Positions 968-28,703 of a stretch of DNA of 29,676 nt are shown here, piece by piece (the stretch's first letter is position 1; each line of letters starts with the position of its first letter). The position numbers and the translations under genes are program-made. Source of the stretch: a virus; the IMG/VR virus record IMGVR_UViG_3300050494_000042. One strand, 5' to 3'. The notes beneath the pieces are model-generated. The model was not told the origin of the DNA, did no database searches, and saw only the letters and a list, made by a program, of their open reading frames with translations.

Positions 968-971
968 GAAT

Positions 972-1042
972 TTGCCTTTCAGGGAATTGTGTCCTATGGT
1001 TGGGTGTTCCGAGAATGACACCCAACACAAGGAAACACGATG
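972..1042 (+). promoter_or_regulatory. early promoter/leader cassette, copy 1 (exact 71-bp repeat)
   Basis: TTGCCT(972-977)-17 nt-TATGGT(995-1000), hairpin GTTGGGTGTT/GACACCCAAC, RBS AAGGA, ATG. Identical to 4231-4301. Confidence 0.85.
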
Positions 1043-4227: not shown

Positions 4228-4230
4228 AAA

Positions 4231-4301
4231 TTGCCTTTCAGGGAATTGTGTCCTATGGTTGGGTGTTCCGAGAATGACACCCAACACAAGGAAACACGAT
4301 G
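4231..4301 (+). promoter_or_regulatory. early promoter/leader cassette, copy 2 (exact 71-bp repeat)
   Basis: Base-for-base identical to 972-1042, up to and including the ATG. Confidence 0.85.
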
Positions 4302-11052: not shown

Positions 11053-11105
11053 ACAGTTTATCAGGCATTTCTGATACAATCCACATCCTGCCGACAGAAT
11101 CGAAT

Positions 11106-11134
11106 TTGCCTTCCAGGAAATCGTGTGCTAGGGT
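11106..11134 (+). promoter_or_regulatory. third, diverged member of the TTGCCT promoter family
   Basis: TTGCCT-TCCAGGAAATCGTGTGC-TAGGGT versus TTGCCT-TTCAGGGAATTGTGTCC-TATGGT. Confidence 0.75.
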
Positions 11135-11182
11135 TCTTTCGTTGAAGACACCCCGAACCCAACCCCACAAATCGAGAATAAT

Positions 11183-11684: not shown

Positions 11685-11885
11685 ATGTCATCCCAAACCT
11701 TCCCCATCTGTCCGCTGTGCTTTCTGCCCATGACACCAGGGCAGGCGATTCACGACAATGACCTGTGTCCTGTTCACTTGGCATGTGCTCAGAAGATGCA
11801 GCGGGAACTGGAAGAAATCGACCTGGATGCCCAAGAACGGGATTTCAAGTATCGAGAACGAAACCACAACCCTGACGGGGATTAA
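11685..11885 (+). CDS. small Zn-finger protein
   Basis: CPLC…HLAC, GGAG RBS. Confidence 0.6.
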   Translation: MSSQTFPICPLCFLPMTPGQAIHDNDLCPVHLACAQKMQRELEEIDLDAQERDFKYRERNHNPDGD

Positions 11886-11944
11886 TCCGCTGCAGTGGAT
11901 TGGTAACTGCAAATACGACCACGCCAGTACAAAGGAACTCGCTC

Positions 11945-12624: not shown

Positions 12625-13308
12625 TTGTCAAGGATTCACTGCGTATTGATCTGCTTCAACAATCCGGAGCAGACTCTGACCCGATGGCAACGGGACGTCT
12701 TTCCCGGAGTCGAGTACACGAAGCAGGAACACTGCCTGACGGTGATTGACAATTCCGCCAAGCGATCCGAGATGCTGGCGGAAGGATTCGGCGAGAATTA
12801 CTTGTGGCAGGGGGGAAATAATCTACAATATGGCCCCTCCATCAACCTCGCCGTTCCTCGATTACCCTCCGACTACATCCTTTATGCCTGTACGAAACAC
12901 GGCAAGATGTTCGATCCGTCCTGGGTGTCTGATCTGCTCCATCCGTTCCAAGATGACGAGATGGTTGGCCAATCGGGGTTCTTGATGGGTTCCAACTCCC
13001 CAGAAGGTGTTGCCCACGCCATGAACTGCCCGTGGGTCAGGGAGCGGTTCCGATTCACCGATGAATCTGGAAACGGCTACGTCCCACAGCACATTCAGGG
13101 TGGGGTGTTCATGGGACGAACCCAGGCCATGCTGGAGAATCCCTACCATCCAGACATTGCACATTTGTACACGGATCATTATATCACCTGGGCGTTAATG
13201 AAAGACGGATGGAAGTGCGTGAATGTCCCCACCATCTGTTCCGTGTGGCGGTCCACCATTCAGAACCCCAATGGCATGAAATTCGTGCATTCTGACAACT
13301 TTACGTGA
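12625..13308 (+). CDS. GT-A/GT2-like glycosyltransferase (divergent)
   Basis: VLICFN, VIDNS, NLQYGPSINLA, SDYILY, WVSDL, HIQGGVFM, YTD…L..DGW. Confidence 0.75.
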   Translation: MSRIHCVLICFNNPEQTLTRWQRDVFPGVEYTKQEHCLTVIDNSAKRSEMLAEGFGENYLWQGGNNLQYGPSINLAVPRLPSDYILYACTKHGKMFDPSWVSDLLHPFQDDEMVGQSGFLMGSNSPEGVAHAMNCPWVRERFRFTDESGNGYVPQHIQGGVFMGRTQAMLENPYHPDIAHLYTDHYITWALMKDGWKCVNVPTICSVWRSTIQNPNGMKFVHSDNFT

Positions 13309-13317
13309 GAATCGTCA

Positions 13318-13830
13318 ATGCCATTGCTCTACGCCAATTTAAAGACTTTCGGAGTTCTTCCTGACGGGGAACCGGTGCCTGGATACGTCGATTCCCCCAC
13401 CAAAACGTATTCCATAAGCTCTGATGCTTTCCTTGTTGGAGAGCAGTGGCGTAACACTGAAGAAGAGAAGGATTCCATCTTATCCGGGGCATACGCCGAC
13501 GCTCTGCGGGAATGTGAAGTAGACTGTGACGTGTACCGGGCAGTGATTGAGTTCCTGATGCTCTGCTTTCGAGGTGGTCACCGAGACGGACAGTACAGAG
13601 ATATCGTTGGCTACCTCTTCGACTGTGACAGGAAGAATGTCCTGAAGGAGTTCCCGAAAGCATTCGTTGTCCAGGACGTTCGCAGACGACGAACACACTA
13701 CCGAATCGCGTCCGGCGTCTTCGATAACAGAGGCAGGAAGTTCCTTTGCAACTGGTGTCTGTCCGAAAAGAGAGCCTGGGCCGCAGCCGTGTCCTCCATC
13801 GCAAATCGCAAATGGGATCGATCAGCGTGA
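13318..13830 (+). CDS. hypothetical protein
   Basis: 170 aa, GTGA-coupled to the next gene. Confidence 0.65.
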   Translation: MPLLYANLKTFGVLPDGEPVPGYVDSPTKTYSISSDAFLVGEQWRNTEEEKDSILSGAYADALRECEVDCDVYRAVIEFLMLCFRGGHRDGQYRDIVGYLFDCDRKNVLKEFPKAFVVQDVRRRRTHYRIASGVFDNRGRKFLCNWCLSEKRAWAAAVSSIANRKWDRSA

Positions 13831-14225
13831 CTACTGAAGACGACTTCCAGAAGATGCTTGATCTTCACCCGGAGGACTGGCAGACACGACTGATCTTCGC
13901 CGACTGGTTGGAAGAAAGGAACAATCCACTCGCAATCGGGTATCGCATTCTCGGGTTGCATCGAATTGTTCCTTACAGAAGCTCAGCAACGGCAAGTTGG
14001 GTGTACTGCATCTGGGGCGGAAACTTCGTTGGGAGTCTTTGGGAAAAGCATCTACTCCCAGAACCGATTGATTACGAGATGATGTGTGACGCTGGCGGTG
14101 GCGAAGGACACGGATTCTCAGATTTATCAAGACGGGCACTTGAAGACCGTGCTGCCAGAGCCATTGCCGCATTGCCACCAGAACGAAAAGCCGAACTCCT
14201 TCAACAGGAATTATCACAAGCATGA
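13827..14225 (+). CDS. TIGR02996-domain protein, paralog 1
   Basis: TEDDFQKMLDLHPEDWQTRLIFADWLEERNNP.A. Confidence 0.85.
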   Translation: MTTEDDFQKMLDLHPEDWQTRLIFADWLEERNNPLAIGYRILGLHRIVPYRSSATASWVYCIWGGNFVGSLWEKHLLPEPIDYEMMCDAGGGEGHGFSDLSRRALEDRAARAIAALPPERKAELLQQELSQA

Positions 14226-14980
14226 AACCTCTCGCCGTGTTCACTATTTCTCGAAATGAAAAGTTTTTTCTACCGAGATGGCTTTCGTATTACAGCTACC
14301 TGAAAGCCGACCTATTCGTCCTCGATCACGAATCGGCTGACGGAAGTACGACGGGGATCAAGGCGAAGGTGGTCCCCGTCCACCGCGAGCACACCGACGA
14401 CGTCGGATGGATGCTTCGTACCGTCACGGAGTTCCAGCATGGACTCCTCAGTCACTACCACCGCGTTCTGTTCGCAGAAGTAGACGAGATTCTGTGTCCT
14501 GACCCACAGTCGTATCCGTCTACGAAATACAGTCCCCTTCAGTGCTATCTGGACTGTAATCAGCAATCGACCCTGACAGCCACGGGATACGACGTCTGTA
14601 ATTGTCCGGGGGATGTCCCGTTCGACCCCCGACGTCCGTTGCTATTCCAGCGGAAATGGAAACGCAACGGCCGCTACGACAAGACGCTCATCTCCACAAA
14701 GCCCCTGGAATGGGAAGTGGGCTTTCATCGGCTGAAGGGAGTACGGGAAGGAACCGACGAACACAATCCCGATCCGAACTTACTCCTGATTCATCTGCAC
14801 TACATGGACCGGGAAATCGCCTGGTCCCGGTTGGTCAGTCGAATGACGGGAAAGACACCGGCTCCTGGTGATTGGGGTGCTCAAAACAAACACGTCGAAA
14901 AGGAACCATTCGACCGTGATTTTGATGCTATGGTTGAGGGTGCTGTCGAAGTTCCTGACCGATGGAAGAGGATGCTGTGA
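14222..14980 (+). CDS. glycosyltransferase family 2 (Glyco_tranf_2_4-like)
   Basis: RNEKFFLPRWLSYY, VLDHESADGST, FAEVDEIL, W..GFH, LLLIHLHY.D. Confidence 0.88.
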   Translation: MKPLAVFTISRNEKFFLPRWLSYYSYLKADLFVLDHESADGSTTGIKAKVVPVHREHTDDVGWMLRTVTEFQHGLLSHYHRVLFAEVDEILCPDPQSYPSTKYSPLQCYLDCNQQSTLTATGYDVCNCPGDVPFDPRRPLLFQRKWKRNGRYDKTLISTKPLEWEVGFHRLKGVREGTDEHNPDPNLLLIHLHYMDREIAWSRLVSRMTGKTPAPGDWGAQNKHVEKEPFDRDFDAMVEGAVEVPDRWKRML

Positions 14981-15411
14981 CCACTGAGAAAGACTTCGAG
15001 AAGATGCTCGATGCGTGCCCAACTGACTGGGACACCCGAAAGATCTTTGCCGACTGGCTTCAAGATCGCGACGATCCGCGTGCGGAAGGAATTCGGGCGT
15101 TGGCTTTCTATCAAGAATTCCCCGCACTGGATGAAGCCACGTGGTTTAATAGAGACCAATACACTTCAAGCTACAAATTGCCGAGTGGACGTAAACACCA
15201 CGAAGGATTTCTTCCGAAGGACTGGTTCGATCTGATTGAAGGATATGACAGTCGAGACAGGGAATGGTGGAAGGATTTTTCACCAAAACACAAATCTGGA
15301 CGGTCCTCCAGAGCTAGAGCAGAAGACGCGGCGGCATTGGCATTCGCGAAACTTCCTGAAGAACGACGGCAGGAGTTACTTCAGCCTGTCCAGCAGGAGC
15401 AGACAGCATGA
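14977..15411 (+). CDS. TIGR02996-domain protein, paralog 2
   Basis: TEKDFEKMLDACPTDWDTRKIFADWLQDRDDPRAEGIR. Confidence 0.85.
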   Translation: MTTEKDFEKMLDACPTDWDTRKIFADWLQDRDDPRAEGIRALAFYQEFPALDEATWFNRDQYTSSYKLPSGRKHHEGFLPKDWFDLIEGYDSRDREWWKDFSPKHKSGRSSRARAEDAAALAFAKLPEERRQELLQPVQQEQTA

Positions 15412-15830
15412 CTAGCGAAGAGGACTTCTGGAGGCAAATTGACCAGAACCCAAAAGATTGGATGACTCGTTTGGTGTTCGCCGATTGGTTGTCCGACCAT
15501 GACGATCCGCGTGCGGAAGGAATGCGTGCTCTTGGTGTCCTCCGAACAGGAGTTCATTTTGCTTCTGGAGATCGAGTGTGGGCAATATTCTCCACGGAAT
15601 GGACACTGAAAGGACACTCAGACCCCAGTTGCGGTGTGCCAAAAGACTGGATCAAAGCAGTTCGTAGAACAGAGTTCGTCCATACGTGGGATAATTTTGG
15701 TTGTGTGTTCACAGTCGAAAGAAACGTGAGTAGGGTATCTGATCTTCTGAACGCACTGGCATGGGCTTTCTTTAATCTCCTCCCTGAACGCAAGCTCGAA
15801 CTTCTCCAACCGAAAGAACAACTCGTATGA
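15408..15830 (+). CDS. TIGR02996-domain protein, paralog 3
   Basis: SEEDFWRQIDQNPKDWMTRLVFADWLSDHDDPRAEGMR. Confidence 0.85.
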   Translation: MTSEEDFWRQIDQNPKDWMTRLVFADWLSDHDDPRAEGMRALGVLRTGVHFASGDRVWAIFSTEWTLKGHSDPSCGVPKDWIKAVRRTEFVHTWDNFGCVFTVERNVSRVSDLLNALAWAFFNLLPERKLELLQPKEQLV

Positions 15831-16441
15831 CCTGGGATGAACTCTTCCAAGCACCTGGACCTGACCGGCATTACGATGATCGGGTCTTGGGTCCGATTCA
15901 GAAGGCCGACGCTTGCCTGTTGGCCGCTGTGTGCAATTACATGCGTCCGGAAGCGGCTATCGAATACGGCTGTCTGGAAGGACACTCTGCGGCTGTGCTA
16001 GCTCGGTTCTGCAAGCGACTGTTCTGTGTCGAGATTGACCACGCTCGACAGGGACTGTGTCACGTGATCGACAAGAATCCCAATATCACCCACGTCCACG
16101 CCAGCATGACGGAGTGGGTGCCTCCGGAAGACGTGAAGGACATTGGTCTGGTGTACTTCGATGCCAGCCACAAATGCGAGGATTCTCTCGCGGCTTACGA
16201 CATTCTGGAATTCCGCCTGAGTCCCACGGCACTTCTGATTTGCCACGACACGGGCGACTGGTGCGATCCGTATCCCAACGAGGACTTCAAGAAGTTCACT
16301 GCACGGAAAGAAACCGTGGACGGGGAACGAGAATTCGTTCGGTGTCTGTTCCAACGAGGATGGCAGGCAATCGCGTTCGGATGTACGACGCAGTTCCGCC
16401 ACGGGTTGACGATTCTGCAACGCAGCACAGGATGGAAATAA
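15827..16441 (+). CDS. class I SAM-dependent methyltransferase (Methyltransf_24-like)
   Basis: IEYGCLEGHSA, CVEID, LVYFDASH, L…ALLICHD. Confidence 0.88.
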   Translation: MTWDELFQAPGPDRHYDDRVLGPIQKADACLLAAVCNYMRPEAAIEYGCLEGHSAAVLARFCKRLFCVEIDHARQGLCHVIDKNPNITHVHASMTEWVPPEDVKDIGLVYFDASHKCEDSLAAYDILEFRLSPTALLICHDTGDWCDPYPNEDFKKFTARKETVDGEREFVRCLFQRGWQAIAFGCTTQFRHGLTILQRSTGWK

Positions 16442-17640
16442 TGAAGCCGAAATTGGTATGCGTTACACCTACGATACGACCGGAACAAATGACCAAGTTC
16501 CGTGAGGCGTGGAATTACCTGTTTGACAAACACGAAGTTTCCTTGATCACGGTATGGGACGGGGAGCGTCCACGAGTCACTTACTCGCCAGGCTGCTCCA
16601 AAACCGAAATGGACATCACCCACACACCCTTGCTGGAGAAGGTGTGGACGGATCACCGGGATTTATTCGTTCGATTCAGTGATGCGTGCCGCAACCTCGG
16701 ATTCGTCGCTGCGGCTGCGATGGGGGCTGACTTCATCTTCACCGCCGATGACGACGTCGCTCCCGTTTCCTTCTGTGACTGTCCGTCCGGGTACTGGAAG
16801 GACAACTGGGACGACCCGATTAAAGCTCACCTGAATGCTCTCAACAAGAAAGTTTCAACGTCCTGGATGTCCACTGCCCACGACACGGAACTTCACTTGC
16901 GGGGGGAGCCGTATTCGACACGGGAAGAAAGTCCCGTGATGCTGTCCCACGGGGTTTGGGTGGGTGTGCCGGATTTCGACGGTGAGACACAGTTACGACT
17001 GGAGAATCAGACTCCAAGTTCGGAAACCAACTGGTTCAGTACGCAGACAGGTGTCCCCTACACTCTCCCCTACTACATCGGTCCGATTCCGAGAGGTGTT
17101 CTATCGGCCCTCTGTGGAATGAGTTTGATGGTGCGGAAAGAAGCTCTGCCGTACCTGTACTTCGCTCCGATGGGACCAGATTCTGGCGTCACGGACGGAT
17201 GCAGTACCTGCACTGGTCCCGGTCGAATACTGGACTCCGGTAATGAATGGAAGGGTCATCCCGATTGCAAGAGATGTCGTGGGACTGGAAGAATTTCCAT
17301 CCTCCATCGTTTCAGTGACATCTGGATGTCCGTCTTTCTGAAAAGAGAATTCGACAGCCGGGGATGGGCTGTGTTAACGGGGACATCGACCATCCTTCAC
17401 ACACGAGCTTCCGACGCCAAGAAAAACTTTGAACAGGAGAAGCTCGGAAGGGAGTGGAACGAACGAATCGCTTTGTGGAGCTTACTGAACGAACTACCCG
17501 AATACCCAAAAGGAACTGACATTTCCGAACAGGAGTGGAATTATTTCCGTTCCTACGCAGAGAAACGCCGAAAGTACGCAGAGTTGATTCAGTCAGTCCA
17601 GGGCCGCGAGAGCGGAGGAGGTGAAAACACTGCTCACTGA
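16441..17640 (+). CDS. reversibly glycosylated polypeptide / UDP-arabinopyranose mutase (GT75/RGP) family protein with a DnaJ-type Zn insert
   Basis: PTIR, ACRNLGF, IFTADDD, RGEPYS.RE, SHGVW..VPDFD…QL, IP.G…CGM, YF..MG, RFSDIW, TG…I.H.RASD…N..QE..G. True start is the ATG at 16441. Confidence 0.85.
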   Translation: MKPKLVCVTPTIRPEQMTKFREAWNYLFDKHEVSLITVWDGERPRVTYSPGCSKTEMDITHTPLLEKVWTDHRDLFVRFSDACRNLGFVAAAAMGADFIFTADDDVAPVSFCDCPSGYWKDNWDDPIKAHLNALNKKVSTSWMSTAHDTELHLRGEPYSTREESPVMLSHGVWVGVPDFDGETQLRLENQTPSSETNWFSTQTGVPYTLPYYIGPIPRGVLSALCGMSLMVRKEALPYLYFAPMGPDSGVTDGCSTCTGPGRILDSGNEWKGHPDCKRCRGTGRISILHRFSDIWMSVFLKREFDSRGWAVLTGTSTILHTRASDAKKNFEQEKLGREWNERIALWSLLNELPEYPKGTDISEQEWNYFRSYAEKRRKYAELIQSVQGRESGGGENTAH

Positions 17641-17846
17641 CAAATTGTCCGTAAGTCCTGTACAGGAAACGGGATAATACTCTTTGTTGCTGAAATCAGG
17701 ATCTCGCAGGACGTAAGTTATTACAAAATAAGGATTTAGATGCATTGTCAGCAGGAGGAGACAGACGTCAATCTTGGAAATAAGTACCCTCTCGCGGCAA
17801 CAGCTTGATTTGCTTTTCGGGCAAGAGGATGCTACTCTCCCAAGTG
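17641..17846 (+). promoter_or_regulatory. CRISPR leader-like region with a sigma70 promoter
   Basis: Non-coding and AT-richer, with TAAGT motifs at 17652/17714/17781. TTGCTT(17810-15)-17 nt-TACTCT(17833-38) with a TGn extension puts +1 near the first repeat. Confidence 0.75.
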
Positions 17847-18009
17847 GTGACATACCGAGTGCAACCGGTTTGTAGTTGCAACGAAAACACGTCGATTTTT
17901 ATTGACCAACAAGTTGATGGTGACATACCGAGTGCAACCGGTTTGTAGTTGCAACCGGAGGAACGGTAGGTGGAATGCGGGGTGACATGCCGAGTACAGC
18001 CAATGTGAA
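17847..18009 (+). CRISPR. orphan CRISPR mini-array (2 identical 36-nt repeats, 1 degenerate terminal repeat, 2 spacers)
   Basis: GTGACATACCGAGTGCAACCGGTTTGTAGTTGCAAC at 17847-17882 and 17920-17955. Spacers are 37 and 26 nt. The third copy at 17982 matches 21 of the first 28 nt. No cas gene in the window. Confidence 0.8.
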
Positions 18010-18014
18010 ACCAG

Positions 18015-18036
18015 TTGGAGAGTTGTAACTCTCCAA
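18015..18036. terminator. hairpin after the terminal repeat, at the convergent junction
   Basis: TTGGAGAGTT-GT-AACTCTCCAA, a perfect inverted repeat. Confidence 0.55.
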
Positions 18037-18041
18037 GTTGC

Positions 18042-18077
18042 CCGTCATTCCTAGTGCATTGGGTTTGTAAATGCAAC
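18042..18077 (+). repeat. diverged CRISPR repeat copy overlapping the 3' end of the glycosidase gene
   Basis: 26/36 identity to the array repeat, with a compensated stem TGCATT/AATGCA. Confidence 0.7.
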
Positions 18078-19265
18078 AACGGTACGTTGGGGAGTAAGTG
18101 CTCTTTCCAGATCCTCGTGACGGTATTTGTGGAACGTGATGTGTCGATCATGTGTTCCACTGGCCGTAATCCAGTCGTCACCAACTCGAACTGATGCACC
18201 TACGAATGTTACGGCTATGTACTGATTCGTGGGCTTGGTATCCAGGTCCGCGAACAGAACCGGACGAGGGATGATCCTTCGGAACGCAAAGGGGGGTTTG
18301 GCATCCAGGGTAACGAGTCCGGTCCGGTATCGACTGGGTGATCCGAAACGATCATGCATCCACACCCACAACTCATCACCCACCCGAACCGGAGGTGCCC
18401 CACCCCTCGGTTCCCCCCCTTCCCACGGAATGCCAGGAGCCTCAGAAACCCACTCCGCTCGTTCACCATTCAATTTTGCCACCTTTAGTGGGGATAAACT
18501 GTAGATGGCGTATAAATCCCCACCTGGACGATCCTGGTGCAGAAGATGGTTCTTCTGCCACCTGTTTGAGGGTACTCCTGGCCAATCTGGAGCGAATATC
18601 TGTTCTGTGTCGTAATTCTGCCCCAATCGAGCGTACAGTTGATGCGTCTGGGTGACTTTTCGGTTCCTTCCCACCACCCCAATGAACGAGACGTGCAGTT
18701 TGTCCTTGAAGACGAATAGACGTGGGTCTTCGCGGCCCCAATTCGCCCGTTTGTGGGACAGTTCGAGTTTCTTCGGCTGGCTGACAGGATCGAATCGCTT
18801 GTTGAGTTCACAGATCCAGATGTTCGACCCGGCCCATCCATCCCGCCACGCGAAGGCGTAACCGTCCTTCCATTCCGTCATTCCGGGGTTGAACCGATAC
18901 CCTGCGAGTTGAGGAAAGAAGTTGGTGTGATTCCATTCCTTGAGGACAGTGGACGGAACGGCTGGTTGAAGGATGGCAGGACGAATCTGGGGTTTGGGCT
19001 TGCGGTCGGGACATGAAACGCAACAAGAAACCCCTTCGATCTTCTTGCTGATGGTGCAGGTTCCGTGCTTGGGAACAGCACAACTGAAGACTTTGAGTTG
19101 AACCATCCCGGAGCAGGAAGGGCACTGTTTCGTTTCCCCTGTCTCCTTACCGCGATGAAGACAGAACGTCGGGTCGACCTTCTTGGGAGTGGCAGGAGGC
19201 TTAATGCCACGTTCCGCTTCTTTTCGTTTCAAGTAGACAGCTTCGAGTTCCTTTTTGCTGGGCAA
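18051..19265 (-). CDS. Cys-rich N-terminal domain plus five-bladed beta-propeller glycosidase/phosphorylase (GH130/DUF377-like)
   Basis: FNPG, GREDPRLF, WQKN, RGGAPP, YRTG, VTFVG, SG..D motifs. Confidence 0.75.
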   Translation of the reverse strand: MPSKKELEAVYLKRKEAERGIKPPATPKKVDPTFCLHRGKETGETKQCPSCSGMVQLKVFSCAVPKHGTCTISKKIEGVSCCVSCPDRKPKPQIRPAILQPAVPSTVLKEWNHTNFFPQLAGYRFNPGMTEWKDGYAFAWRDGWAGSNIWICELNKRFDPVSQPKKLELSHKRANWGREDPRLFVFKDKLHVSFIGVVGRNRKVTQTHQLYARLGQNYDTEQIFAPDWPGVPSNRWQKNHLLHQDRPGGDLYAIYSLSPLKVAKLNGERAEWVSEAPGIPWEGGEPRGGAPPVRVGDELWVWMHDRFGSPSRYRTGLVTLDAKPPFAFRRIIPRPVLFADLDTKPTNQYIAVTFVGASVRVGDDWITASGTHDRHITFHKYRHEDLERALTPQRTVVAFTNPMH

Positions 19266-19300: not shown

Positions 19301-19329
19301 ACGGAAAGGAGCAATTTCCTGAAAGGCAA
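19301..19329 (-). promoter_or_regulatory. fourth copy of the TTGCCTTTCAGG.AATTG motif, with a poor -10
   Basis: The - strand reads TTGCCTTTCAGGAAATTG (17/18 to the early cassette), upstream of the glycosidase gene. Confidence 0.5.
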
Positions 19330-19426
19330 TCCCCTCTCCGTCCTGGAGTATTTTAGGGGGGTATGGTTGTACTGAGAAGATGCATCGCATTTCGCGGTGT
19401 CGAACTCGAAACTTGGGAGTGGAATT

Positions 19427-25320: not shown

Positions 25321-26703
25321 TCAAGCACTTATAAGGGCGTTGCTCACCGTGCCGGGGGTGGCGGACGGAAGCAGGATACCAAGTTGTGGGGTCGATAGGA
25401 GCCTTGCAAAACCCGTTTGGAACGTTCCAAGATTCGATGCACCACCGTAGTTATTAGTCAAACTAAGATTCCATCCGTCTCCTGCAACGAATTGCGTGGC
25501 TCCACTGAACACCCGGAAGTACGGTCCTCCGGTGTACATCAAGGTCGGAGCCGCGAAGCACACGTCGTCCATCACAAACTGAGCACCCGCCAGGTCGGTG
25601 GAGATGCGGAACTGGAGTCTGACCGTGTCAGGCGGTGTGTTACTGAGCCGGAAATTCCCACTGTAGGCCACGTAGGACGTGGTCAGGGTGGAAAGCGTCA
25701 CCGTGAAGGAGTTGTTCACTCCCTGCTCGTCCTGAGTCACAACTCCTGACCCGTCAACGAGTTCTACCGTGAGTACACCAGCCGAAATGGTGCCCGACAC
25801 TTTTCGTAGCCAGAGGTTCACGCAGTACGGTGTCAGCCCTGCCGGGGAGACGGAAGTCCCCGTCGTTGCATTGCCGAATTCCTGGTAGAGGACAGTGTTC
25901 GTCGCTCCGGGATTGAACTGAACACAGTAGGTGCCGGTGTTCTGGTTCGTGCTGTTCCGCTGGATGTCGGTTCCCCAGGTGCCGACAGAAAGAGTGAAAT
26001 TGCTCAACACCGGGGTGACGGCACTCGACCAGTCCTCGAAGTCGCCGTTGGTCAAGAAGTTCCCGCTCGTACTGGCGTCTTGTGTGGAAGAGATCGCGTT
26101 AGCCTGTACGCTTGCGGCTGACCCGGTTGGCCAGTCATAATCCCATACGGAATTCGTGACGTCGGGTGATCCTGCCAGAGCGAACAGTTCCCTACCTGCT
26201 GTAGCTGTCCCGGTGTAGGCGTCCTGGGTGCATACCAGACGAAGAGTTTCCTGAATAGAGTTTTCCTGCACCAAACCATCACCTCGCCTGGTGGTGGTGA
26301 CGAGAACTCCGTTTCCGACGCTTCCCGTGAGTTGTGTGGGGATGATCGCGATGACGTTGGCTTCCACCGTGACGCCCTGAAGAATCATCTGCCGCACAAC
26401 TTCCAAGAGTGCAGCCTGAAGACTTCGTGACTGGGAGGGCTGATCGGCCCTCACCATTTGAATGACGGTGTTCTGAGCCGCCTGGGATGCGAACGCCATC
26501 ACTCCAGAAGACACTCGTGTGAGAGCGTTGGCCTGTACGGAAATCGCTCCCCCGATTGAGAGGAACGTCGTCTCGTACTGGGCATTAATGGACGCGAACG
26601 CGGCGGGAAGGGATGCAGCGTAAGGTGTTGTCAAATAAGCAACATGGAGGAGTCTGCCAATCCTCGTAAAAAGCCCCTCTGTTCCGGTGAAGGCAATCGC
26701 CAC
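25321..26703 (-). CDS. virion structural protein with a carbohydrate-binding-like (CBM4/9) domain
   Basis: NFLTNGDFEDWS…LYQ…Y.VNLW…DDV jelly-roll pattern, AGGAGG RBS. Confidence 0.75.
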   Translation of the reverse strand: MAIAFTGTEGLFTRIGRLLHVAYLTTPYAASLPAAFASINAQYETTFLSIGGAISVQANALTRVSSGVMAFASQAAQNTVIQMVRADQPSQSRSLQAALLEVVRQMILQGVTVEANVIAIIPTQLTGSVGNGVLVTTTRRGDGLVQENSIQETLRLVCTQDAYTGTATAGRELFALAGSPDVTNSVWDYDWPTGSAASVQANAISSTQDASTSGNFLTNGDFEDWSSAVTPVLSNFTLSVGTWGTDIQRNSTNQNTGTYCVQFNPGATNTVLYQEFGNATTGTSVSPAGLTPYCVNLWLRKVSGTISAGVLTVELVDGSGVVTQDEQGVNNSFTVTLSTLTTSYVAYSGNFRLSNTPPDTVRLQFRISTDLAGAQFVMDDVCFAAPTLMYTGGPYFRVFSGATQFVAGDGWNLSLTNNYGGASNLGTFQTGFARLLSTPQLGILLPSATPGTVSNALISA

Positions 26704-26748
26704 TTCGGTTTCCTCCTACCACAATCAGGTCTGCCAATCGACGTCGAT

Positions 26749-26784
26749 GTTGCAACTATTAACCCGTTGCACTGGGATGTTCTT
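26749..26784 (-). repeat. solitary CRISPR repeat unit in the structural operon
   Basis: The - strand reads AAGAACATCCCAGTGCAACGGGTTAATAGTTGCAAC, matching 22 of the last 25 nt of the array repeat. It is intergenic and sense to the late operon. Confidence 0.8.
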
Positions 26785-26789
26785 ACAAA

Positions 26790-28703
26790 TCAATGAATGT
26801 TGGGCGTAAAGAAGAAATATCCCTGATCCTGTGACGTATTCGTGGACTGTTGTTGGCTCCCACCACCGTCAGTTGGAATAGAAGACTCCTGGAATCCCTG
26901 TGGTGTCTGTGGGGGCTGTTCGGGCTGAACACCCCCAACCTGGAATGGCTGCGAACCACTCGAAACCTGAGCCTGGACAGCCCAGGTAATCAAATTCGTC
27001 CATGCACTGGCCGCGAGTCCCCCACCTTGACGAACAAGGTCATTGTAAAACGGAGCGACAGCAGGAGCAATTTGGTAATTCTGTGGGTTCAGGATGGCGT
27101 GCCAGTAATACCCCGCTCCGGAGAAGACCATGTTCTGGCCATCCGGACTCACACGGGCATCTTCCATCACCACACTTCCCCGAAGAGGAACAAGGTTGGA
27201 GTTGGGGGACTCGAACGTGGGATACACGGGTGGAGCACCAATTCGGGACATCACCCACGTTGTCATGACGGACATCATCCCACCGTGAGCTTTCACGATG
27301 GCGGACACTCCCCCCTGTGAGCCGAGTCCGGTCCCCGGCATCTGAACGTTGCCACTATCGTTGACGACGGTGGTTTCAATTTCGCAAATGGTGTAGGGGG
27401 CGGTGTCGGACAGCACTTCCGTGGAATTGGAACTGGTCGATCCAATCGTAATCGTGGAAGGCGAAGTCCCTGTACCCCCCAAAGTGATGGAGCCGCCAAT
27501 CCCTGCTAATGCTCCCCCGGTTTGAAGCATGTCGGGATTCTTCTGGAATGATGGCCCCTGAGTCGTGGTTTGCATCGACTTTTCGGTTTCGATGCAAAGA
27601 CACGGGTCCAGAAACGACGCCACCAGAAGTCCCGCAATCCTCTTCCGATCCGGAGGAGAGATGCCCGGTTGATTCGACTGGAGACCAAACGTCTGGACGC
27701 CACAAGACGGCATTACGGGAACCTGATCGTTCGCTGCTGCAAAGGCGACTTTGGGTCCGCTCAGGTTGGTCAACATGGCCGACATCGTCACGGCGATTTT
27801 GGGGACGAAGAGATCTTCATTGAATTGCCCCCACCAGATAGGAACGCTTCCTTTACCACCCAGGAACCCATCCGTGGCCAGCTTGTTGTAAGCCATTCGG
27901 ATCGCCCGATTCATCAGAGCTTTTCGATCTGTTCCCTTTGGTCCCTCCAGTTCGAGCATCACTGTGCCAATACGACGAAAACCAGGCTGCGGCGTGACGA
28001 CCACGTACGTCCCATTAGCCGTCGTGGACGGGAACGGCGGGAGTCGGTCGACTTCCTGATCCTCGAAGTGGAAGTCTACCTCTAATCCGTCCGGCGACAG
28101 AGTGTACTGCGACTTGGTACGAATGTAATCGGGCAGAAGGGGTGGAGTGCATTCGATTCGGAAGTTGTCAGCACATTGCAGGAGGGAACTCCGAACGATT
28201 AGCTTCCCGTCCGTGGTCAGGTTGGAATTCCAGTTCTGGTCGAAGGACTCGCTCTGTGTCCACCGGAGGGAGATGACCGGACTGAAGGTGGCCCCTTCGG
28301 GACATTCCGCATCACACTCCACAAGTCGGACGATGCAGCCACACTCTACCAAGAACGTACCCGTGGACACCTCCCGTACCGTGGCAGGAAGAGGATCAGG
28401 TCCGAGTTTATCGTCAATCTCACCTTCGGGAACCTGGATCATCGGTGTGGCCCCCATGATGTACAGCATGGGTCGTCGTGGAGCTTCGAGCTTCGACTTG
28501 ATCAGAGCGATTGTCTCAGCCGAAGACTTGGGTTCATTAACGCCGGGGAATGAACCTTCAGAGATGGATAAGAATCCTCTCACTCGAATGGTGTATTCCG
28601 TGTAGAGGGCGTCGGTGTAAGTTGGGTCACGAGGCATCTTCCAACTGAACTCAAGAGTTTGAGTCAATTGCAAAAATACCCCGTTGTACTGGTATGATGC
28701 CAT
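26790..28703 (-). CDS. putative distal tail/baseplate protein
   Basis: 637 aa, beta-rich, directly after the tape-measure-like gene. Confidence 0.7.
   Translation of the reverse strand: MASYQYNGVFLQLTQTLEFSWKMPRDPTYTDALYTEYTIRVRGFLSISEGSFPGVNEPKSSAETIALIKSKLEAPRRPMLYIMGATPMIQVPEGEIDDKLGPDPLPATVREVSTGTFLVECGCIVRLVECDAECPEGATFSPVISLRWTQSESFDQNWNSNLTTDGKLIVRSSLLQCADNFRIECTPPLLPDYIRTKSQYTLSPDGLEVDFHFEDQEVDRLPPFPSTTANGTYVVVTPQPGFRRIGTVMLELEGPKGTDRKALMNRAIRMAYNKLATDGFLGGKGSVPIWWGQFNEDLFVPKIAVTMSAMLTNLSGPKVAFAAANDQVPVMPSCGVQTFGLQSNQPGISPPDRKRIAGLLVASFLDPCLCIETEKSMQTTTQGPSFQKNPDMLQTGGALAGIGGSITLGGTGTSPSTITIGSTSSNSTEVLSDTAPYTICEIETTVVNDSGNVQMPGTGLGSQGGVSAIVKAHGGMMSVMTTWVMSRIGAPPVYPTFESPNSNLVPLRGSVVMEDARVSPDGQNMVFSGAGYYWHAILNPQNYQIAPAVAPFYNDLVRQGGGLAASAWTNLITWAVQAQVSSGSQPFQVGGVQPEQPPQTPQGFQESSIPTDGGGSQQQSTNTSQDQGYFFFTPNIH

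Follow-up and report, generated by a model that had tools for sequence, protein, structure and literature searches.

The locus examined here raises the question of why a CRISPR repeat stands by itself between two tail genes of a phage, and which CRISPR protein it might serve. The window is the whole 29,676-nt stretch of IMG/VR record IMGVR_UViG_3300050494_000042. An earlier sequence-only reading had offered an RNA anti-CRISPR (Racr), a guide excised from the late structural transcript, or a Cas-dependent mRNA processing site. The last of these is best supported by the present analysis, with the phage's own dead Cas12m as the effector; the Racr account is poorly supported and the guide account lacks a target.

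Anatomy and setting of the repeat unit

The unit occupies positions 26749..26786 on the minus strand, within an 86-nt gap between two genes. The upstream gene (26790..28703, minus strand) encodes a 637-aa tail-tip protein whose N-terminal domain resembles Dit and baseplate-hub folds, with a modest Z of about 7. The downstream gene (25321..26703, minus strand) begins with GTG and encodes a 460-aa virion/tail protein containing a CBM (CenC-like) domain of the kind seen in minor tail proteins. These fold models agree with the earlier description of both as tail genes; Pfam, PHROGs and Atlas offer no name for either. Along the minus strand, the gap consists of 13 nt following the upstream stop codon, a pseudoknot core (26749..26776) and 45 nt leading up to the GTG start. 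The latter segment includes, as noted previously, the Shine-Dalgarno (SD) sequence AGGAGG (26712..26717, minus strand); it lies 8 nt 5' of the start codon, in agreement with the gene call.

The core has the layout of the MmCas12m2 scaffold (PMC10442227) and of the Cas12m repeats in Table S5 of PMC11013384. Its elements, in minus-strand order, are CCC (26776-74), an AG linker (26773-72), the first stem strand (26771-66), GGG (26765-63), a 6-nt loop (26762-57), the second stem strand (26756-51) and a terminal AC (26750-49). The stem was reported as intact and is: 26771-26766 pair with 26756-26751 over 6 bp. Together with the 3-bp helix, it makes a pseudoknot that ends 2 nt 5' of the guide position, and the AG and AC dinucleotides match protein contacts in MmCas12m2 (PMC10442227). 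The stem pattern finds 6 matches, compared with a mean of 0.25 after shuffling, and 25 real copies are present in 83.6 kb versus 0-1 in shuffled genomes. The same genome carries a cognate cas12m gene and an array of this repeat. Judged by its sequence, the unit is an intact type V-M (Cas12m) handle. A search of Rfam returned no match.

The unit measures 38 nt versus 36 nt for the repeat of the phage's main array; its 5' end, which is dispensable, is 2 nt longer, and there is one substitution in the loop. It shares 28/29 of its 3' bases with the main-array repeat (CM score 45 bits) and only 24/28 with the repeat of a second, smaller array. The CCC/GGG combination had been interpreted as a pseudoknot pair flipped from G-C to C-G. 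The pairing itself is sound (26776-26774 can pair with 26765-26763), but there was no flip: CCC/GGG is the form of five of the seven main-array repeats, which lie outside the window, and because the unit matches these better than the mini-array, it carries the standard repeat form of this phage. The distance and strand given earlier (about 8.7 kb from the array, opposite orientation) are accurate for the mini-array, which lies 8.7-8.9 kb away and inverted to the unit.

The phage and its Cas12m

The phage is represented by a 65-kb fragment without a cas gene (G000) and also by a 103,868-bp contig; the contig with cas12m is 100% identical to the window and to G000 across all overlaps. A Cas12/TnpB search of G000 yielded only a small zinc-finger ORF, and cas12m lies outside that fragment. 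The gene (L025:18895-20799, 634 aa) was assigned by homology, with an E value of 1e-43 to PDB 23vw, and the family profile matches GoCas12m at E 2e-74 and MmCas12m2 at E 7e-71. The RuvC catalytic positions are Ala/Ala/Ala in the phage protein versus Asp, Glu and Asp in an outgroup homologue. With all three catalytic residues replaced, the phage Cas12m is, on this alignment, nuclease-dead. At the position of His269, through which MmCas12m2 contacts the repeat, it carries Ser. Both phages with dispersed handles (see below) have Ser here and a third phage has His; other homologues mostly have His, with a few Asp, Ala, Cys or Ser. The coincidence of Ser with dispersed handles comes from two sister phages and may be taken only as a lead.

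The main array (L025:20921-21396, seven repeats) lies 3' of cas12m. In addition to the five CCC/GGG repeats, it contains one hybrid and one repeat of the mini-array type; its spacers have no confident target. The mini-array (17847..18029, plus strand) comprises two identical repeats, both of the CCG/CGG variant that one main-array repeat also shows, plus a third copy that has decayed. The decayed repeat (window 17981-18038) has a compensated stem, an enlarged loop and an overlapping strong hairpin.

A prophage homologue in Tuwongella and the spacer matches of a related phage's Cas12m array point to Gemmataceae, which is likely the host family. The search of GenBank phages gave no match. A promoter cassette (TTGCCT, 17 nt, extended -10) is repeated at window positions 969-1042, 4228-4301, 11102-11135 and 19312-19330, and the same consensus lies 5' of the mini-array, the main array, cas12m and three dispersed handles. 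Window positions 12625-19265 hold a glycan-related cluster with an RGP family, a methyltransferase and a GH130-like gene, interleaved with three paralogues that we take to be TIGR02996-like. At L074:3057-9498, one gene joins the portal to an ATLF-like domain, and the head cluster contains a gene of the PI3/PI4-kinase family.

Dispersed handles

The unit had been called solitary. This is correct locally, as no other copy lies within 8.6 kb, but not genome-wide. The 102 kb recovered of the 103.9-kb phage, to which the copy counts refer, contain 34 copies: the main array accounts for seven, the mini-array for three, and the other 24 are dispersed over 19 clusters. Without exception these 24 (19/19 clusters) are sense to the gene that follows, including one that points the other way ahead of the only minus-strand gene in the head cluster. 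Some lie directly 3' of a phage promoter, for example before cas12m; many follow stop codons, and three are in frame within ORFs. The handle-to-start distance has a family median of 29 nt and is 45 nt at the tail junction. One dispersed, diverged copy (11877..11913, plus strand) sits directly 3' of a stop codon and 31 nt before the next start, and a further copy with a compensated stem (18041..18077, plus strand) is antisense to the end of a 404-aa gene.

The model used to find copies scores the 6-bp stem alone. Counting pairs over copies selected for pairing would be circular; a fairer test of the pseudoknot is given by 18 copies that played no part in model building, in which 51/54 cells pair. 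The variable pseudoknot pair co-varies (6/10,000 shuffles), and this covariation may be partly inherited and not selected, since the main array holds both pseudoknot variants. The structure is retained in copies with as little as 16/28 identity. The AG and AC elements with both helices intact are found in only two dispersed copies, one of which is the tail-junction unit.

One of the in-frame handles, in a 670-aa gene (L025:15888-15924), takes the place of a relative's sequence, and the two share a 7-nt start, which hints that handles may spread through microhomology. In pattern scans, viral and genome collections yielded only chance matches, and metagenomes yielded one true copy. This near-perfect handle (L008:544-580, Ga0335069_10354125) lies between two tail-type genes of another phage and is antisense to both. 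It sits directly 3' of a TATAAT box and looks free-standing, unlike the dispersed copies described here.

The junction in related phages

Conservation at this junction had been put forward as a check, and it was not found: the handle is missing in all nine relatives examined, a set that includes four more distant ones and one phage with Cas12m. Two relatives have abutting genes at this position and three have a gene of 83-96 aa. The closest relative (74% protein identity) encodes its own dead Cas12m, 68% identical, and has dispersed handles, some of them at junctions orthologous to those of the phage (ahead of cas12m and of the lone minus-strand gene, for example). Its handles have the GCC/GGC knot of that relative's own array, and the sequence 3' of them has diverged. 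At orthologous junctions, then, position and handle are conserved and the 'guide' is not. A third phage, with a Cas12m that is 51% identical, has arrays and one lone copy in 39 kb.

The 45 nt 3' of the unit align with the 96-aa junction gene of the closest relative (L013) over its final codons and its RBS region; the relic of the small gene's 3' end spans 26715..26745 (minus strand). The local alignment score of 32 is reached by none of 500 shuffles, and the junctions of the other relatives gave no such match. This alignment identifies the 45 nt as a native gene end with its RBS and not a spacer. In the simplest history, a repeat from the main array would recently have taken the place of the small gene's body, and the remaining gene end would have become the leader of the 460-aa gene. 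The near-identity to the main array marks the tail-junction copy as young. Young and found in 0/9 relatives, the copy gives no sign of selection, and its own function is the least certain element of the analysis.

The sequence 3' of the repeat

What stands at the guide position is the relic of a native gene end, which does not fit an acquired spacer. The guide option suggested earlier fares badly on this account and for want of a target. The phage's own genome contains no site of at least 14/17, 486 kb of related loci, among which there is no close sister phage, contain none at 17/20, and 252 Gemmataceae genomes contain no exact match. The guide 17-mer has three exact matches in IMG/VR, none of which extends further. 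One-mismatch matches occur at scattered sites in 48 host genomes, none of them exact or extending further, and we read them as common codon words; a reversed control pattern gave one match but is not a fair null.

A perfect 12-bp palindrome (26737..26748, minus strand) begins exactly at guide position +1. There are 13 such palindromes in the 102 kb, and in only one of the 34 copies does one begin at +1. It may be the footprint of the insertion event. Since the first 12 nt are self-complementary, the region would make a poor seed. Self-targeting through the palindrome was considered and rejected: the opposite-strand site matches over 12 nt only and is preceded by GCCA, whereas in related phages three spacer matches indicate a PAM of TTC/TTN.

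Two related arrays yielded observations on spacers. The first spacer at L028:11907-11942 (JAWVGW010000179.1) is antisense to the 3' end of its own cas12m (31/36), with TTC at the PAM position, and matches the cas12m end of the present phage more weakly, with TTT; silencing of cas12m in self or kin is possible. Spacers of a related phage's array (L052:12099-12136 and 12918-12953) match Gemmataceae genomes at up to 32/38 and 31/36 with TTC upstream, and one of them matches a sequence that recurs within a host clade, suggestive of silencing directed at the host.

Proposed role and alternatives

We propose that the phage acquired the unit not long ago as a place on its late mRNA where its own dead Cas12m docks or processes the transcript, a reading to which we assign a probability of roughly 0.5. 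Cas12m cleaves pre-crRNA within the repeat independently of RuvC, as reported for MsCas12m (PMC11013384) and MmCas12m2 (PMC10442227), and for this reason a triple-dead enzyme can remain an RNA-processing factor. On transcription of the tail operon the pseudoknot would fold and be bound by Cas12m, which would cut in the 5' part of the repeat without RuvC and separate the 637-aa and 460-aa cistrons. The downstream message, comprising the 460-aa cistron and the genes that follow, would then begin with a protein-bound pseudoknot, and this cap could make it more or less stable than the upstream part, thereby tuning the ratio of tail proteins. Direct blocking of ribosomes at this copy is unlikely, because the start codon lies 45 nt away and the SD sequence (+32 to +37) falls beyond the approximately 17-20 guide bases engaged by bound Cas12m (PMC10442227). 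An RBS-occlusion switch was likewise rejected: the calculated cost of opening the start region is 12.6 kcal/mol in the bound, cut form versus 9.4-12.4 kcal/mol in the free form, mostly within shuffled controls. With the SD beyond the reach of Cas12m and no RBS switch in the folding, an effect through cleavage or stability is likelier than steric repression. A pseudoknot for stop-codon readthrough or frameshifting was also rejected, as the stop-to-knot spacing differs between copies, from 0 to >13 nt, and each downstream gene comes with an RBS of its own.

For the dispersed handles as a system, we tentatively suggest, with somewhat more reserve than for the unit, that the dead Cas12m has been co-opted as a programmable mRNA-processing or docking factor that is still recruiting sites. 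Handles occur in the replication, head and tail operons, and the tail-junction copy would be a new site, seen soon after it replaced a gene of the tail operon. The arrangement suggests that the CRISPR protein serves for docking on or cutting the phage's own mRNAs, rather than for jamming a host CRISPR system. The strengths of the docking/processing reading are the uniform sense orientation, the conservation of handles with position and the pseudoknot in the copies outside the model. Its weaknesses are the lack of this copy in the relatives, a predicted handle stem probability of only about 0.4 in naked mRNA, and the Ser at the His269 position in an enzyme whose processing activity is a prediction; in addition, sense orientation is equally compatible with a guide or a decoy.

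The absence from relatives and the near-identity to the array would also be expected of a tolerated by-product, in which recombination between the array and phage genes spreads repeats and a young copy, having come in when a dispensable gene was deleted, has little or no effect. The variable or missing small gene at this junction, the in-frame replacement at the 7-nt microhomology and the recombinogenic nature of repeats (PMC10120712) agree with such an origin. Neutrality, however, leaves unexplained both the sense orientation of every cluster and the structure kept in the most diverged copies; an intact handle in an essential late mRNA is expected to be bound, and the unit is invariant in four assemblies, though these may represent one population. 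Overall, we regard a by-product as unlikely. Were the processed RNA instead to load Cas12m with native sequence, it could silence the locus of sister phages that still have a PAM, on the model of TnpB guides that target empty alleles; Cas12m is a DNA roadblock (PMC11013384), the handle is fully intact and native sequence occupies the guide position. This self-derived guide is rather improbable given the missing target, the self-complementary seed, the lack of a TTN at the matching place in the closest relative and a guide position that is not conserved in other junction copies, although a target search without close sister phages is a weak test. The same target-less and self-complementary guide region, joined to a perfect handle in a late structural operon, could suit a sink, whereby an abundant message would, late in infection, titrate the phage's own Cas12m, or that of a co-infecting sister, off DNA targets into non-productive complexes. 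The majority of copies are located outside the tail operon, in replication or head regions or at promoters, and the sink appears distinctly improbable.

A Racr decoy against a type V-M system of the host, the main proposal of the sequence-only reading, is very improbable. The unit is an intergenic, full repeat that is solitary at its site, as in known solitary repeat units (SRUs), and the repeat family has reached host genomes: a degenerate mini-array-type copy lies in a Gemmataceae MAG (G040; L076:638-665), on the strand opposite to a 456-aa transporter-like gene and 20 nt 5' of it. The cognate effector, however, is encoded by the phage itself, at a distant site on its genome, and handles follow the array variant of each phage. 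Neither a sigma70 scan nor the phage consensus gave a promoter within 120 nt of the unit, and a candidate near 27070 is weak and within chance. Cas12m and the repeat were not found in 252 and 151 Gemmataceae genomes, respectively, in searches that had no positive control.

Comparison with known systems

The known parts are the V-M repeat, solitary repeat units and phage-encoded Cas12m; the apparently novel element is the dispersal of handles for a phage's own effector in its mRNAs. A literature search, mostly without subscription journals, found no phage that scatters the handle of its own dead effector through its mRNAs. Polycistronic phage mRNAs are known to be processed at dedicated sites in T7 by RNase III and in T4 by RegB, which are non-CRISPR nucleases.

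The closest match is to type V-M repeats and scaffolds (MmCas12m2, PMC10442227; Go, Ms, Mk and PpCas12m, PMC11013384), which share the 36-nt repeat, the pseudoknot of 3 and 6 bp, the 2-nt linker, the terminal AC and an effector that binds DNA without cutting it. In the MmCas12m2 scaffold, which the unit matches at each position, an A is flipped out, there is a G.A pair along with six canonical pairs, and the terminal C is read by its base (PMC10442227). Among the 3+6 pseudoknot repeats of Table S5, two, those of Mk and Pp, have a 6-nt loop, as here (PMC11013384). In contrast to these systems, the present repeat stands alone in an mRNA with native phage sequence behind it, and the effector is phage-encoded, with Ala at the three RuvC positions and Ser for His269.

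Racrs resemble the unit in being single, intergenic repeats in phage genomes, but they are typically driven by their own promoter, free of cas genes and matched to the host system (PMC10651486); the unit lacks an evident promoter, belongs to a set of 24 dispersed copies and shares its genome with cas12m. A lone repeat in a genome fragment can thus mimic an anti-CRISPR when its cognate cas gene is 50-60 kb away, which calls for caution with SRU catalogues. Standalone repeat-like regulatory RNAs such as scaRNA, CreA and tracr-L (PMC10120712) likewise reuse repeats outside the array, also beside cas12, but they reside in or near cas loci and guide effectors to promoters, whereas the present handles are genome-wide and no promoter target was found. 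Phage MV-1 also encodes a Cas12m and an array, with no adaptation genes and no spacer targets found (bioRxiv 10.64898/2026.09.14.751636); its catalytic triad is intact, and the text consulted mentions no dispersed repeats.

In function, a parallel is engineered control of mRNA stability by (d)Cas12a, in which a DNase-dead Cas12 cleaves transcripts at an inserted repeat, in a synthetic yeast system (PMC9943656). If the docking/processing reading is correct, a CRISPR effector would act on the transcripts of its own phage through its RNA-handling side alone, and the phage would provide a natural counterpart of engineered Cas12/Csy4 operon processing. The tail-junction copy, with an intact handle here and a handle-free junction in a relative, makes a good test substrate.
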